A stretch of 64,000 nt of DNA from Verrucomicrobiota bacterium (lineage in GTDB: Bacteria > Chlamydiota > Chlamydiia > Chlamydiales > JAEYWL01), in assembly GCA_023428915.1 (NCBI GenBank), contig JAEYWL010000010.1, positions 3,357 through 67,356 on the forward strand, given 5' to 3'. The notes under the pieces are model-generated. The model was not told where the DNA came from. It did no database searches and was given only the letters and a program-made list of their open reading frames with translations. Shown piece by piece: positions 56,283 through 64,000 of this stretch. Both the position numbers and the translations under genes were made by a program. Within the stretch, counting starts at the first letter, position 1; each line of letters opens with the position of its first letter.

Positions 56283-57835
56283 ATCCCTTCTCTTTGGGGG
56301 TGTCGCATAGTGGCAATTGCAAGGGACTGTAAATCCCTCGACTTCGGTCTCCGTTGGTTCGAGTCCAACCGCCCCCATCTCCCTGGACTGTCCTGTACCT
56401 GTATGAATAGGTGAAATGGTTCACGTAGGGTTACAAGCAAGTTTTTACCGTCCAATTTTAAGTTCTGAAATACAAAATTCAAAAGTTGACGTTTTTCATC
56501 TACTTCAGAACTCTGAAAAATATCCCATGCACGCTTAGCTAATTGCATCACTTGATTAGCAGTTACGTGAAACTGTAAATCAACGGTTTCATGTCTAGCT
56601 ACCTGATCTCGAAGTTCGATTTGACGTCTCTTGTACTCTTCGGTCTTTTGACGAAAGAGAGGTTCATCTATGATCCCATCAAGCTTGTCATCATACATTT
56701 GGCTAATTCGCTTTTGAATACGATCCTGCTCTTGGCGGATAGACTTCAGTTGCTCTTTATGATAGATCTGCTGGGAATCGTGAATGGAGCGCAGATGGTT
56801 AGTAATTTCTTCAATTGCGCTATCAGGGAGTTGAATCCTGCCGAAGTGAGTCTGAATTGTCTTCAAGAGATCCTCTTCTCGAACATAGACTCGAGAGCAG
56901 TTATGCTTAGCGTTGGTGCAGCTATAGTAAATATATTGCCCCTTCTTTAATTCAGGAGAGGCTATACAGCCGCAATTGTTACAGGTAATCAGACCTTTCA
57001 ATATAAAGGCAGATGTTGCTGCTTTGAAGGGCTTCTTATTGAATCCAGCAAAAACATCTTGCACTCGACGAAAAAGTTCAGGAGAAACTAAAGGTTCATA
57101 GCGATGAAGGAAGTGACCACTTTTTGTGTTCATCACTCCGCTATAAAACGGATTTTTTAGCATGGCTTCTACCTGCGACTTAGCTATCTTGCGGCCACCT
57201 TTAGTCTTCATACCCATTTCGTGCATCTTTTCTGTTAGCATTAGTAGAGAGACATTCCCTGTGGCGTATTGTTCGAACATATGACCTATTAGATACTTCA
57301 AATTAGGGTCTGGAATGATCGTCTTATCGCCTTTTTCGTCTGTAGTATGGAGATAGCCAAAGGGGGCAAGCCCGATCCATAATCCCTTCTTTAATGCCTC
57401 TTCTTTGCTTCGTTTGATATTATCGCTCATTTGAAGGACGTAGCTTTTAGCGAACATTACCCCCATATCCCAACGCAGTATGTCTGAGCTATTGGATTTT
57501 TGGTTTAGAATAAGATTTTCGCGATAGAAGTGAATTTCAACCTTCCCATCTAAGCGAAGATCGTTGAGGGTAAGAGACTCCTTAAAGCTTCGCTGCACTC
57601 TATCTATGGTATCAGCAATAAGAGCATAGGGGTGACGCGATTTGCGTATTAGAGCAAGAATTTTTTCAAACTCTTTTCGAGTATCTCGAGTCGAAGATTC
57701 AGTGATTTGAAACACGTGTTCTACTTCAAAGCCTTTCTTTTGAGCATACTCAGTTAGTCGACGGATTTGAGCTGGTATCGATTGACCATCTTCTTGTTCT
57801 TTGCTAGAAACACGTGCAAGTAATAAGGCTTTCAT
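56264..57835 (-). CDS. Large serine recombinase (integrase); the ORF tail runs antisense through tRNA-Tyr into tRNA-Thr
   Basis: 523-aa ORF with the resolvase catalytic domain ALLLARVSSKEQ, a recombinase domain, the zinc ribbon CNNCGC...YYSCTN..HNC and a coiled coil. The last roughly 38 codons (WGRLDSNQRR...) are tRNA antisense. Confidence 0.88.
   Translation of the reverse strand: MKALLLARVSSKEQEDGQSIPAQIRRLTEYAQKKGFEVEHVFQITESSTRDTRKEFEKILALIRKSRHPYALIADTIDRVQRSFKESLTLNDLRLDGKVEIHFYRENLILNQKSNSSDILRWDMGVMFAKSYVLQMSDNIKRSKEEALKKGLWIGLAPFGYLHTTDEKGDKTIIPDPNLKYLIGHMFEQYATGNVSLLMLTEKMHEMGMKTKGGRKIAKSQVEAMLKNPFYSGVMNTKSGHFLHRYEPLVSPELFRRVQDVFAGFNKKPFKAATSAFILKGLITCNNCGCIASPELKKGQYIYYSCTNAKHNCSRVYVREEDLLKTIQTHFGRIQLPDSAIEEITNHLRSIHDSQQIYHKEQLKSIRQEQDRIQKRISQMYDDKLDGIIDEPLFRQKTEEYKRRQIELRDQVARHETVDLQFHVTANQVMQLAKRAWDIFQSSEVDEKRQLLNFVFQNLKLDGKNLLVTLREPFHLFIQVQDSPGRWGRLDSNQRRPKSRDLQSLAIATMRHPQREGIADSRN
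56296..56377 (+). tRNA. tRNA-Tyr (anticodon GUA), type II with long variable arm
   Basis: Acceptor GGGGGTG/CGCCCCC, anticodon stem AGGGA/TCCCT with loop CTGTAAA, variable arm GAC-TTCG-GTC, and T arm GTTGG-TTCGAGT-CCAAC. It is 82 nt. Confidence 0.9.
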
Positions 57836-57838
57836 TGG

Positions 57839-58036
57839 TTATTTTATTTCATTTGAATTTTGGATTAATTTTAATAAAGTTTCGAGATCTTGTTTTTTAT
57901 ACAGGCGATATCCATTAATAGGGTTACGATGAGTTGAGAGTTTTCCTTGTTTTTCCCAATTACGTAACGTACTCGCCGAAACACCCAAATAAAGTGCCGC
58001 AGCATTAACCTTTAGATATTCATCTATCTTGTTCAT
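57839..58036 (-). CDS. MerR/excisionase-type HTH protein (candidate recombination directionality factor or regulator)
   Basis: 65 aa from the ATG preceded by AAGGAG. The HTH segment is AAALYLGVSASTLRNWEKQGKL..NGYRLY. It ends 4 nt before the integrase start. Confidence 0.65.
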   Translation of the reverse strand: MNKIDEYLKVNAAALYLGVSASTLRNWEKQGKLSTHRNPINGYRLYKKQDLETLLKLIQNSNEIK

Positions 58037-58101
58037 GGAAGAAACTCCTTTGGTGAGGTTAAAAAGTAGCAAGGGTTATTAAACTTTGCAACATGAATCT
58101 T

Positions 58102-62239: not shown

Positions 62240-62539
62240 ATGTCGCAATATATTCAGATAACTAGAGAGGTATGCTTCAACGAATGTTCAGGTAGACAGA
62301 CCTTGCTACAAAAAGGAACATTTGGATTCGTTTTAGATAAAGAAGGGATTCAAAGCCTTCATGGAGCATCTAGAGAAATGAAAGCATATCTAGAAGCATG
62401 TCGCATTGAAGCTGGTAAAGAAGAAAATATTTATGCGCTAGTTGCTGGCTATCCATGTAAACTTAGTAACAAAGATTGCCGAATTCTAGATTCATTTTTG
62501 GATAAAACACCTCTTCATTGTATTGCAGAGTTAATATAG
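62240..62539 (+). CDS. Phage-element hypothetical protein (99 aa)
   Basis: ORF with the RBS AGAGAGG, immediately upstream of the terminase small subunit. Confidence 0.45.
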   Translation: MSQYIQITREVCFNECSGRQTLLQKGTFGFVLDKEGIQSLHGASREMKAYLEACRIEAGKEENIYALVAGYPCKLSNKDCRILDSFLDKTPLHCIAELI

Positions 62540-62548
62540 GAGTACTAC

Positions 62549-62980
62549 ATGCCAGCACCTAAAGGGCATTTACCTTATCGTGGGAGTGAAACAGGAGGTA
62601 GGCCAAAGAAGTATACTAGTGATTTCATTGAAAAGGAAGCTGATGCTTTTATTGAATGGATGCATCGGGAAAATAGTATCTGGTATAAAGATTTTGCTTT
62701 AGAACGTGGCTATCTACCAGATCTATTGTCAGAGTGGGCAAAAGGTAATGAAAAGTTTTCCCGTGTATACAGTTACGCTCAAGCTTGGCAACAGTCTAAG
62801 CTCTTAAAAGGTGGTTTGCTAAATCAATATAATGCTGGGTTTACCAAATTCGTTATGGTGAATACTTGCGGTTGGAGCGACAGGCAGCAAGTGACTGGAG
62901 ATGCAGCTAATCCTCTCGCTTTCTTGATGAAGCATATTGACGGCACATCAAAGGAACTTGTTGATGGCAGCAGCACCTAA
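62549..62980 (+). CDS. Terminase small subunit
   Basis: 143 aa. The N-terminal GGRPKKYTSDFIEKEADAFIEWM and the later GFTKFVMVNTCGWSDRQQV are typical of phage small terminases. It overlaps the terL start. Confidence 0.7.
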   Translation: MPAPKGHLPYRGSETGGRPKKYTSDFIEKEADAFIEWMHRENSIWYKDFALERGYLPDLLSEWAKGNEKFSRVYSYAQAWQQSKLLKGGLLNQYNAGFTKFVMVNTCGWSDRQQVTGDAANPLAFLMKHIDGTSKELVDGSST

Positions 62981-64000
62981 CATCGAAGCAGCAGAGCAGC
63001 TCCTAAATGATCCTTGCTGGCGATTAAATCACCTGTACTACATCATTGACAAGTCGGGCAACAAGGAGCTCTTTAAGCTTAATTGGGCGCAAGAAAAGCT
63101 CTACAAAGAGATATGGTACTGCAACTTGATCTTAAAGGCTAGGCAGCTCGGTATAAGCACGTTTGTTAGTCTCTTGTTCTTAGATCGCTGTCTCTTCAAC
63201 AGCAACCAGCATGCTGGTATTATAGCACATACTCGCGAGGATGCTGAAATGCTATTCAGGAGGGTCAAATTTGCCTACGATAGCTTGCCTGTTGAGATTA
63301 AAGGATTGCGCATGGCCAATACAGATAACGCACGTGAGCTGCAATTAAATAACGGCTCTACTCTCAGAGTGGGTATCTCTATGCGATCAAGTACGCTACA
63401 ATATCTTCATATTAGCGAATTTGGAAAGATATGTGCCAAGTATCCGGATAAGGCTAGGGAGATCGTTACAGGCGCTTTAAATGCGATTGCACCAGGTCAG
63501 TATGTATTCATAGAATCAACAGCTGAAGGTCGAGAAGGTTATTTTTATGAGATGTGCAAAGAAGCTCAAGCTGCACGCGATACAAACAAACAGCTATCGC
63601 CTTTAGACTTCCGCTTTCATTTCTTCCCTTGGTGGCTTCACAATAGCTATCAGATCAATTCTGAATCGAATATAATACATCCCTACACGGATTATTTTAA
63701 TGCGCTTGAAACCCAAATAAACGCGAAATTAACTCATTCTCAAAAGGCTTGGTATATCAAGCGAGCATCAACCCAGGGTGAAGACATGAAGCGTGAGTTT
63801 CCAAGCACACCAGAAGAAGCTTTTGAGGTTTCAAATGAAGGACTCTATTACAGCAAACAGATTACTGAAGCTCGCAAGGAAGGGCGCATACGACGCGTCT
63901 ATTATGATGCCAATGTGCCTGTCCATACCGCATGGGACTTGGGATATAATGATTCTACAGCGATTTGGTGGTATCAGGTATGTGGGCAAGAGATTCACCT
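62964..64000 (+). CDS. Terminase large subunit (partial, continues past the window end)
   Basis: This frame is open from the ATG at 62964 to the window end and is not in the ORF track. It has the Walker-A-like ILKARQLGISTF, LHISEF, IESTAEGREG and the nuclease-domain start VHTAWDLGYNDSTAIWW. Confidence 0.8.
   Translation, partial: MAAAPNIEAAEQLLNDPCWRLNHLYYIIDKSGNKELFKLNWAQEKLYKEIWYCNLILKARQLGISTFVSLLFLDRCLFNSNQHAGIIAHTREDAEMLFRRVKFAYDSLPVEIKGLRMANTDNARELQLNNGSTLRVGISMRSSTLQYLHISEFGKICAKYPDKAREIVTGALNAIAPGQYVFIESTAEGREGYFYEMCKEAQAARDTNKQLSPLDFRFHFFPWWLHNSYQINSESNIIHPYTDYFNALETQINAKLTHSQKAWYIKRASTQGEDMKREFPSTPEEAFEVSNEGLYYSKQITEARKEGRIRRVYYDANVPVHTAWDLGYNDSTAIWWYQVCGQEIH

Follow-up and report, generated by a model that had tools for sequence, protein, structure and literature searches.

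What a tailed-phage packaging motor is doing in a chlamydial genome is the question raised by the last genes of a 64-kb stretch of chromosome (here called the window), in which terminase genes follow a tRNA-Tyr gene, an integrase and a replication module. Chlamydiae live as obligate intracellular bacteria; few routes by which they exchange genes are known, the tools for their genetics are poor, and to our knowledge the only phages classically described for them are the Microviridae, which are small single-stranded DNA phages. The original prediction for this locus was that it belongs to a tailed-phage-type prophage or, alternatively, to a satellite that hijacks capsids, either of which was thought notable for the phylum. 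That claim of novelty needs tempering, because phage genes have been reported on chlamydial plasmids (PMC7846284).

A two-module element at a tRNA-Tyr gene

The chlamydial nature of the host, which had been proposed from the sequence, is borne out by the YidC protein of the chromosome, which matches NF002168/PRK01001 at 1e-294, and by the names 'Chlamydiia' and 'Parachlamydiaceae' that NCBI gives to the closest large terminase subunits (TerLs). Contaminating non-chlamydial DNA is ruled out, since dnaA, gyrBA and tilS are contiguous with the element and the order of tilS, SEC-C, tRNA-Thr and tRNA-Tyr at the site is conserved in two related loci, L014 and L041. The element has a G+C content of 0.36-0.40, against 0.45-0.47 for the flank. 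The tRNA-Tyr gene is the integration target, and its 3' end is the left junction (attL); the closest relative, L164, begins within an identical tRNA-Tyr 3' end, and L014 and L041 are inserted at tRNA-Tyr too. Integrase residues from ~486 onwards are encoded antisense to tRNA-Tyr, implying that the integrated form carries a host-encoded C-terminal tail. Both the insertion at this 3' end and the two-module structure had been correctly predicted, and the earlier list of genes and coordinates, from tRNA-Tyr and integrase through the MerR/HTH_17 protein, replicase and orphans to TerS and TerL, holds (Table 1).

Table 1 Features of the element and its insertion site, in window coordinates
Feature	Position	Strand	Evidence
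tRNA-Thr, just upstream of tRNA-Tyr	56209-56283	+	ARAGORN
tRNA-Tyr (GTA)	56295..56379	+	ARAGORN
Large serine recombinase (integrase), 523 aa	56264..57835	-	Pfam + PHROG
MerR/HTH_17 DNA-binding protein, 65 aa, adjoins int	57839..58036	-	Pfam + PHROG
206-aa orphan	58102..58722	-	ORF
Primase-replicase, 579 aa: CHC2 zinc ribbon, Toprim, AAA_25 (RecA/DnaB-like helicase), C-terminal HTH	58715..60454	-	
69-aa ORF, heads leftward operon	60481..60690	-	ORF
Divergent intergenic region between leftward (replication/integration) and rightward (packaging) operons	60691..60874	.	Gene layout
426-aa orphan	60875..62155	+	ORF
99-aa orphan, directly upstream of terS (family F5)	62240..62539	+	ORF
TerS, P22 gp3 type	62549..62980	+	Pfam GP3_package
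TerL, first 345 codons in window	62964..64000 (runs off window end)	+	PHROG

Within the leftward module, the integrase possesses the Resolvase catalytic domain (Pfam, 2.2e-14), recombinase domain (Recombinase, 1.2e-12) and zinc beta-ribbon (Zn_ribbon_recom, 5.7e-9) of large serine recombinases, each above its cut-off, together with an N-terminal ARVSS motif. It matches PHROG integrase at 3.1e-66, with PHROG 95 spanning residues 1-468, and is 83% identical to the integrase of L164 and 59-62% to that of L014. The adjoining 65-aa protein (Pfam MerR 1.4e-10 and HTH_17 2.2e-9; PHROG excisionase and MerR-like families), which has a 73% identical counterpart in L164, is a candidate excision-directionality factor or AlpA/MerR-type island regulator. 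The 206-aa orphan, for which Pfam, PHROG and PADLOC gave no match, is translationally coupled to the primase gene, its start overlapping the primase stop by 8 nt, and L164 has a 41% identical homologue in the corresponding place. The primase-replicase (Pfam AAA_25 1.3e-26, Toprim 4.5e-4, Zn_ribbon_DnaG 8.9e-4, HTH_23 1.6e-6; PHROG DNA primase 4.6e-30) belongs to a family, F3, that was found in 8 related loci, and the 69-aa ORF has a weak homologue in L164 (50% over 38 aa). The intergenic region from which the two operons diverge is presumed to be a control region; the one sigma-70-like match that it contains (60796-60824) is not above chance.

On the rightward side, the 426-aa protein belongs to a family that is rare (~106 cluster representatives) and whose members occupy the corresponding position in L164 and L014. 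Its AlphaFold2 model has a mixed alpha/beta fold, predicted with confidence (pLDDT 91.7), and no structural match in PDB or BFVD at E<=0.001; the protein was rejected as a capsid or portal. The 99-aa orphan, whose family is present in 5 related loci, gave an unreliable single-sequence AlphaFold2 model (pLDDT 60.6). The small terminase subunit, TerS, scores 33.5 bits against GP3_package (4.8e-8; cut-off 29.4) and shares 43-77% identity across 21 related loci. TerL matches PHROG 2 (terminase large subunit, 6.2e-26) and phrog_26724 (7.1e-61), its Walker A/B regions align with those of T4 gp17, and the best TerL from a cultured phage, a siphovirus, shares ~47% identity across 95% of its length. 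The terminase genes are thus of tailed-phage type, as had been recognised from the sequence.

An IS66-family element interrupts terL in the focal copy

The far end of terL could be followed in contig L001, which is 100% identical to window positions 52549-64000 and extends 415 bp past the window. Here terL stops early, at window-equivalent ~64244, abutting an IS66-family element that has replaced its last ~65 codons, as judged against 6 full-length homologues. TerL homology ends at 'CWFD', with loss of the conserved HNFASHGADAFR block (nuclease motif), and from the DNA breakpoint the sequence continues as GTAACCGGG... with an antisense IS66 C-terminal domain (IS66_C PF13817, 2.2e-8, 34.6 bits with a cut-off of 30, on 45 assembled residues). 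The contig itself ends 171 bp beyond the breakpoint (window-equivalent 64415). TerS and the 99-aa orphan were found on four independent contigs, none of which outranked L001 by flanking DNA; this suggests that all four end at the same place as L001. With its terL cut by IS66, the focal copy is probably unable to package itself without complementation by a helper TerL. It is an IS-inactivated copy and not an inducible prophage.

Related islands are widespread in environmental Chlamydiae

We compared ~30 related loci, nearly all of them from Chlamydiae and including one from cultured Protochlamydia naegleriophila. These share a compact order of integrase (Tyr or Ser), small HTH protein, primase/helicase, TerS, TerL and variable cargo, with terL directly following terS in every family member, and the island family that they form is widespread in environmental Chlamydiae. 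Elements in which both ends could be defined measure 10-17 kb: ~10 kb within a 62-bp direct repeat of tRNA-Tyr (L041), 17.3 kb at tRNA-Phe with a 42-bp repeat (L005), 10.5 kb at tRNA-Met with a 54-bp repeat (L015), and a 10.9-kb contig that has the same tRNA 3' end at both ends and holds element genes only (L171). At least six tRNAs serve as targets (Tyr, Met, Phe, Thr, Lys and another in L171), and the replicase is variously of AAA_25, DnaB+AAA_25, DUF5906 or RepB_primase+DUF3987 type. This swapping of replication modules and integrases, together with the number of tRNA targets, argues for an active mobile family.

A full-length TerL of 494-520 aa is the rule in the family, and terL dN/dS values of 0.04-0.08 reveal strong purifying selection; on these sequence grounds, TerL is functional in the island family. 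Decaying copies also occur, with terL split in two loci (L013 and L021) and terS in another (L003). The cargo that follows terL includes type I restriction-modification, Mrr/ResIII, Schlafen/AlbA_2, AbiJ, YhcG nuclease, HigBA-like, PbeA and PDC-S02 genes, and defence-like cargo is likewise carried by known satellites (PMC10085698). One member of the family has already been listed, as the 15.2-kb PnaK_GI2 of Pr. naegleriophila strain KNic (PMC5010888); it is tRNA-linked, counts among the relatives with both ends defined, and combines a small HTH protein, a primase (RepB_primase+DUF3987), a GP3-type TerS and a 70% identical TerL with a kdp operon as cargo. It differs from the focal island in its replicase type and in that no integrase turned up in the 21.6 kb examined.

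The islands lack virion genes and share terminases with P22-portal phages

No portal, capsid or tail gene was found in the ~19 relatives in which the sequence reaches ~4 kb or more past terL. An iterative HMM search for portals, seeded from related phages, was positive in nearly all of the ~37-42 kb viral contigs and found none in the chlamydial loci; a portal was likewise absent from the 64-kb window and, across 185,579 species-representative genomes, from loci whose TerL exceeds ~52% identity. When 100 downstream ORFs were scanned against PHROG, the top 25 included no structural family, and neither major capsid nor tail nor lysis genes had a match in the relatives. The unannotated ORFs of the islands are too small (at most 224 aa in L171), and the att-bounded size of 10-17 kb too limited, to leave coding room for virion genes.

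The closest virion-encoding relatives of the focal TerL come from metagenomic phages of ~37-42 kb that have P22-type portals (PF16510 P22_portal) and whose portal-bearing contigs encode TerLs that are 55-61% identical and TerS proteins that are 36-54% identical to those of the island. The original prediction had proposed placing TerL in a phylogeny. A bootstrapped neighbour-joining tree of this one protein united islands and portal phages (100%) and recovered a main island clade (100%), a mixed phage/island clade (93%) and a grouping of L082 with phages L091-93 (100%); monophyly of all islands received 0%. In the TerL tree, islands and phages are interleaved. Further small genes are common to both (F32, F179, F83 and an F4-like HTH). 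The one portal phage that is 'integrated', L162, adjoins DNA of 58% G+C and may be a chimera. Another observation concerns a related portal phage that carries a eukaryote-type U-box gene.

Comparison with known satellites and phages

PICIs (SaPIs, EcCICFT073; SatelliteFinder, PMC10085698) resemble the island in several respects: an integrase at one end, an AlpA/MerR-type regulator and a primase-replicase, which stand in that order in the island and its relatives; a terS that closes the operon and is followed by accessory or defence genes; the lack of other virion or lysis genes; a size of ~10 kb; and tRNA-linked insertion. Whereas PICIs rely on the TerL of a helper, the island encodes its own, and, in contrast to PICIs, the island family yielded no capsid-morphogenesis gene. 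Chlamydiae are absent from the SatelliteFinder survey (PMC10085698). cfPICIs (bioRxiv 10.1101/2022.09.08.507074, PMC10085698) do possess their own terS and terL, and their TerL lineages are distinct yet phage-related; however, they also encode major capsid, protease, portal, head-tail adaptor, connector and usually HNH proteins, all of which the island lacks, and their TerL clades stand clearly apart from phage homologues, unlike the interleaved TerLs of the islands. The TerS match to GP3_package recalls the pac terminase of P22/Sf6 (gp3 small, gp2 large), but that system includes a portal, whereas the island holds the terminase half only, with at most 47% identity to cultured-phage TerLs. A P4-like satellite was rejected, as window ORFs had no Pfam or PHROG match to psu, delta, sid, epsilon or alpha; some relatives have DUF5906/VapE-like replicases, and psu, sid and delta were absent from their scanned ORFs.

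A probable phage satellite weighed against other explanations

Packaging genes without virus-particle genes point away from a prophage and most likely to a phage satellite. We consider it probable that a large serine recombinase placed an integrative island at the tRNA-Tyr 3' end, that the region covers its left ~8 kb, and that this island is a PICI-like satellite with its own TerL and no virion genes; the capsid-hijacking alternative in the original prediction is thus the reading that the evidence favours. Its caudoviral prophage, by contrast, has to be given up in view of the truncated terL, the ~19 relatives devoid of virion genes and the small size of the elements; of the gene classes expected in Caudoviricetes only the terminase was found, and portal, capsid, tail and lysis genes were not. 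Degraded terminase genes with no structural genes downstream had been named as the outcome that would overturn the prediction, and this is borne out in part: the focal terL is indeed cut and the relatives have no structural genes, while for the focal copy the sequence beyond window-equivalent 64415 is unseen. A complete or near-complete tailed prophage could still be imagined whose genes for portal, capsid, tail and lysis lie beyond the IS66 insertion, off the contig, given that late operons of temperate phages usually open with integrase, replication genes and terS-terL in that order. Yet L164, at the same site with the same gene order and a closely similar integrase, has an intact terL beyond which lie a host gene for an aminotransferase and the debris of an integrase rather than virion genes, and the TerLs nearest to the focal one (L166 and L171, 100% bootstrap) sit in elements of ~6-11 kb, so that this explanation can hardly be right.

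It is also decidedly unlikely that the island is a functionless, immobile remnant of an ancient prophage in which terminase genes were kept by chance. The IS insertion in the focal terL, the split terS or terL of three or four other copies and the missing integrase near the Pr. naegleriophila island would fit such decay, but one compact gene set is met again and again, combined with integrases of two unrelated types and replicases of at least four, inserted at six or more tRNAs and flanked by long, perfect att repeats; its terL is under purifying selection, and published comparative genomics lists the island for strain KNic (PMC5010888). Prophages decaying independently would not all end up with one layout. 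Rather unlikely, too, is the view of the element as an autonomous integrative island, in effect an island for defence or an integrative plasmid, whose TerS and TerL do not serve self-packaging in borrowed capsids and instead block the packaging of invading phages, process the products of the island's own replication or assist transfer by another vehicle. Defence-type cargo is common beside terL, no helper phage tied to a chlamydial host has been identified, and interference that targets the terminase is familiar from at least part of the literature on satellite and prophage defence. Against this, TerS and TerL stay full-length in the family, retain ATPase and nuclease motifs, are under strong purifying selection and have repeatedly been exchanged with bona fide phage packaging modules. 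Interference alone needs no intact motor, and real packaging activity is the simplest explanation for one that is both selected and exchanged with phages.

If the island is a satellite, it would excise and, in PICI-like fashion, replicate from its own origin by means of its own primase-helicase. Its P22-type terminase would then recognise a pac site on island concatemers and pump the DNA, by the headful, into procapsids of a co-infecting helper phage, the portal of which would have to be compatible with the island TerL. Candidate helpers would be the ~37-42 kb metagenomic P22-portal phages of the same TerS/TerL clade, and the terminase clades held in common with such phages lend indirect support to packaging into helper particles. 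What we infer is the dependence on a helper, packaging of the pac/headful type and a chlamydial host for these phages. No satellite class with TerS and TerL but without capsid genes is known (PMC10085698), and the mechanism is thus without experimental precedent. We suggest, tentatively, that the islands could represent an unrecognised satellite class between PICIs and cfPICIs that parasitises undescribed P22-portal tailed chlamydiaphages, a proposal with about as much to be said against it as for it; were it true, the metagenomic phages would be the first candidate tailed chlamydiaphages.

Across the phylum, these islands maintain a tailed-phage packaging motor under strong selection, swap it with phages and carry defence genes, a combination that points to capsid-mediated DNA transfer, and hence to tailed phages, in environmental chlamydiae. 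A phage satellite in a chlamydia likewise hints that tailed phages infect these bacteria. If confirmed, the finding would carry the satellite concept into a new phylum and add a new repertoire in which TerS and TerL come without capsid genes, would explain the tRNA-linked islands noticed earlier in Protochlamydia, and would suggest a natural packaging and transduction system that chlamydial genetics might put to use.

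An element at a tRNA gene of a chlamydial chromosome

Using ARAGORN, ORF calls and Pfam/PHROG scores, we recovered every feature of the original prediction where it had been placed. G+C content is 0.45-0.47 in the flank as against 0.36-0.40 in the element, and a search for repeats, promoters and terminators across 56.2-64 kb found none above chance.

Features of the element and of the adjoining tRNA genes
Feature	Position	Strand	Module	Remarks
tRNA-Thr	56209-56283	+		ARAGORN
tRNA-Tyr	56295-56379	+		ARAGORN
Large serine recombinase, 523 aa			Leftward	
MerR/HTH_17 protein, 65 aa			Leftward	
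Orphan, 206 aa			Leftward	Start overlapped 8 nt by primase stop
Primase, 579 aa			Leftward	Zinc ribbon, Toprim, AAA_25, C-terminal HTH
ORF, 69 aa			Leftward	
Orphan, 426 aa	60875-62155		Rightward	
Orphan, 99 aa			Rightward	
TerS, GP3_package type			Rightward	
TerL			Rightward	Extends past window end

The integrase ORF (56264-56380 region) lacks its own stop codon, running antisense through the entire tRNA-Tyr gene and ending within tRNA-Thr. About 38 C-terminal residues are host-encoded when the element is integrated, which implies that the C-terminus must differ between the integrated and excised forms. The integrase ORF of a related locus, L014, likewise runs antisense through the tRNA, and that of L164 also enters it. 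By chance, a frame stays open over 85 nt with a probability of about 0.26, and is hence not improbable in itself.

The window starts at dnaA and also holds gyrB and gyrA. Its YidC matches NCBIfam NF002168 (PRK01001; 1e-294), which we take to be the model for the chlamydial long form of the protein, and the nearest TerL proteins bear the NCBI names 'Chlamydiia bacterium', 'Parachlamydiaceae bacterium' and 'Candidatus Protochlamydia naegleriophila'. In addition, the tilS / SEC-C / tRNA-Thr / tRNA-Tyr order is syntenic in L014 and L041, whose related elements occupy this tRNA too. Contamination with non-chlamydial DNA is therefore rejected, and the element truly belongs to a chlamydial chromosome.

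The 426-aa orphan represents a rare family (106 cluster representatives among 1.8 billion clusters); in L164 and L014, islands of the serine-integrase type, its members occupy the same gene position. As a direct check for a virion gene, the orphan was modelled with AlphaFold2: the model is very confident (pLDDT 91.7) and gave zero matches at E<=0.001 against PDB and BFVD. For the 99-aa orphan, a word-indexed search retrieved only the protein itself, and the single-sequence model is unreliable (pLDDT 60.6); PADLOC returned 0 matches for the window's orphans. Elsewhere in the window, a 1,743-aa ORF (45571-50802) without a Pfam match occupies the part of lowest G+C (0.33-0.37); it could be a large protein specific to the lineage, or the region could be a further acquisition. 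Four minus-strand ORFs at 19752-23193 (169, 290, 368 and 254 aa) are also low in G+C (0.37-0.39) and without Pfam matches; by eye, the 290- and 368-aa products have similar N-termini.

Related islands share a layout and have defined ends

Relatives were collected from a scan of 185,579 species-representative genomes, from protein look-ups (L164-L169, L171, L172) and from IMG/VR (L082, L083). The genome scan yielded 21 loci with TerL 61-81% identical, mostly labelled Chlamydiae, with a few in bins labelled otherwise (MAG taxon labels being the depositors' own); the next tier, at <=52% identity, came from Proteobacteria and other phyla. The shared layout starts with an integrase of tyrosine (family F2) or serine (F9) type, often with one extra ORF, followed by an HTH protein of ~70 aa (F4), a variable replication module and one small variable ORF; it ends with TerS and then TerL, with no conserved gene beyond. 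The replication modules comprise an AAA_25 primase-helicase, DnaB with AAA_25, DUF5906/VapE-like proteins, RepB_primase with DUF3987, or a separate zinc-ribbon primase.

Direct repeats delimit the elements of L041 (62 bp, tRNA-Tyr, ~10 kb), L005 (42 bp, tRNA-Phe, 17.3 kb) and L015 (54 bp, tRNA-Met, 10.5 kb). The L171 contig (10.9 kb) has the same tRNA 3' end on both sides and holds only element genes, and PnaK_GI2 of Pr. naegleriophila, listed for strain KNic and delimited by comparative genomics, spans 15.2 kb at tRNA-Thr (PMC5010888). L164, the closest relative, begins within a tRNA-Tyr 3' end that matches the window's exactly, and its gene order is the same (identities: integrase 83%, HTH 73%, primase 61%, 206-aa orphan 41%, 426-aa family 37%). 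Its TerL is intact (496 aa), and past it there is nothing besides tyrosine-integrase remnants and an aminotransferase gene of the host. Among serine-integrase members, a search for attR found none in L164. In L014 an imperfect 42-bp repeat (3998-4039 / 14748-14789) was all that emerged, and its similarity runs the wrong way for a simple attR.

The frameshifted tyrosine integrase pieces directly after terL in L164 (9751-10511) suggest the remains of another integrative element that shared this site in tandem. L015 holds two tandem elements (1-5406 and 5353-15967) at one tRNA-Met, separated by three att-repeat copies: one has a replicase, TerS, TerL and integrase, and the other, ~5.3 kb long and terminase-less, has an integrase, F15, an F4 HTH and an F25 (DUF5906-type) replicase. 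In the subfamily of L016, L017, L021, L082 and L083, terL is followed by the conserved families F33 and F34 and a 1,344-1,624-aa 'polyvalent' protein (Pfam LPD38, 1.2e-38); the L083 tyrosine integrase adjoins a tRNA-Tyr that shares 89% identity with the window's over 55 bp.

Cargo and virion genes downstream of terL

We ran an iterative HMM search seeded with the portals and the major capsid protein from the closest relatives that encode virions. It located a 620-730-aa P22-type portal 0.1-4.2 kb from terL in nearly all viral contigs of ~37-42 kb with enough sequence, and gave 0 matches in the chlamydial loci, 12 genome-scan loci with at least 9 kb downstream included. Pfam and PHROG scans of the ORFs downstream of terL returned enzymes, transporters and defence-type proteins and no structural families. 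In the att-bounded L171, the unannotated ORFs encode just 224, 146, 78 and 56 aa, none of them long enough to be a portal or HK97-fold capsid protein. The absence of portal and capsid genes downstream in relatives, with L164, L166 and L171 in particular, thus argues against the tailed prophage that the original prediction had entertained.

The cargo includes type I R-M (L006), Mrr with a ResIII helicase (L007), a methyltransferase-helicase (L010), a CoiA-like nuclease with Schlafen/AlbA_2 (L012), YhcG nucleases (L014, L020), AbiJ (L166), a HigBA-like pair with HNH (L171) and the kdp operon (Pr. naegleriophila), and PADLOC matches within it include MTase_I, PDC-S02, mad2, PD-DExK and PbeA. A small Cro/cI-type HTH protein (F7, HTH_3/HTH_31) recurs toward the right end of the islands.

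Islands and phages have related terminases

Over ~95% of its length, TerL shares ~47% identity with the TerLs of cultured temperate siphoviruses (Erwinia, Klebsiella, Cronobacter). Its Walker A and B regions align to T4 gp17, and island copies of terL with unsaturated dS have a dN/dS of 0.04-0.08. Closer still are about 20 IMG/VR contigs of 37-42 kb (TerL 55-61% and TerS 36-54% identical), which encode portal, scaffold-like and capsid genes.

The TerL phylogeny proposed in the original prediction, built here from the single protein by neighbour-joining with 300 bootstrap replicates, supports a phage-linked terminase and interleaves islands with portal-bearing phages, which together form one clade (100%). 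The main island clade of 19 includes the window's TerL (100%), which groups with L166 and L171 (100%); islands L015, L019, L041, L016 and L017 fall among portal phages in a mixed clade (93%), L082 joins phages L091-L093 (100%), and monophyly of all islands receives 0%. This interleaving points to terminase modules having moved between phages and islands several times. Islands and phages also have small genes in common, namely F32 (between terS and terL), F179, F83 and an F4-like HTH.

Insertional truncation of terL in the window's genome

The original prediction proposed following the element beyond position 64000 to its far att site. An ENA contig (L001), 100% identical to window positions 52549-64000, adds 415 bp; it stops short of that site, and in it TerL ends after 431 residues. 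Six full-length chlamydial homologues are ~65 residues longer, with an invariant HNFASHGADAFR block. DNA homology to four relatives stops after '...TGGTTTGATG' (window-equivalent ~64244), where GTAACCGGG... follows instead; on the opposite strand this stretch encodes an IS66-family transposase's C-terminal domain (PF13817, 2.2e-8, above the cut-off), and the contig stops inside the IS. The homology break and the transposase domain at the contig end establish that an insertion has truncated terL; the assembly does not reach the element's right end. The IS junction was read in one contig; look-ups with TerS and the 99-aa orphan each returned four contigs, one of 67,993 bp.

Without the TerL C-terminus, which lies in the nuclease half of the protein, this copy should be unable to package itself unless a helper's TerL stands in, and the window locus is an IS-inactivated member of the family. 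Several family copies, the window's included, are degraded: L013 and L021 each have terL broken into two ORFs, and L003 has a split terS. Sequencing error in low-coverage contigs may account for some of these breaks.

Candidate helper phages

A portal profile search returned >2,400 proteins, mostly on contigs of 36-41 kb. The only portal phage on a long contig was L162 (ENA ERZ25039482 contig_49541, 378,905 bp; locus 6000-22160), where a phage part of 38-43% G+C adjoins housekeeping genes of 57-58% G+C. Because of this contrast L162 may be a chimeric assembly, the other reading being a phage integrated into a high-G+C host. This phage encodes an HTH that shares 58% identity with F4 of the islands, another kind of TerL, which is split (Terminase_6N), and a U-box/RING protein (PF04564, 1.1e-7); U-box genes are typical of bacteria living inside eukaryotic cells. 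L170, a free phage contig, also has a TerL that differs from the islands'. We infer both the helper phages and a chlamydial host for them.

A proposed packaging mechanism and its alternatives

The elements are tRNA-targeted and integrative, with their own recombinase, regulator, replicase and complete terminase and without particle genes, and form a mobile family under selection. In the mechanism we propose, the excised circle would be replicated by the primase-helicase-HTH protein and a pac site would be recognised by the island TerS; in P22, the gp3-type TerS system serves headful packaging. TerL would then cut island concatemers and translocate them into the procapsids of a co-infecting phage with a dockable portal, the ~10-kb unit being packaged as multimers in a ~40-kb head.

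Other readings fit less well. A hidden full prophage is highly improbable in the face of L164, L166 and L171. A functionless remnant, which we consider unlikely, would hardly explain why one architecture recurs with its modules swapped, nor the long perfect att repeats and the low dN/dS. A small but real chance falls to a terminase role other than packaging, in defence, interference or elsewhere; against it, the full motor is retained and the repeated exchange with phage modules favours real packaging.

We rate the island family as most likely phage satellites of a PICI-like kind. A literature search on tailed phages or satellites of Chlamydiae gave passing mentions only, terminase genes having been mentioned in a Protochlamydia island (PMC5010888) and on chlamydial plasmids (PMC7846284); it turned up no account of these islands, their satellite-like architecture or any chlamydial satellite. 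PICIs supply TerS only (PMC10085698), whereas cfPICIs (10.1101/2022.09.08.507074) supply terS, terL and a full capsid set. The chlamydial islands would resemble PICIs in their mode of packaging but, as judged from their genes, supply TerL as well; they share terS and terL with cfPICIs but not the capsid set. By this comparison, they appear to be intermediate between PICIs and cfPICIs.
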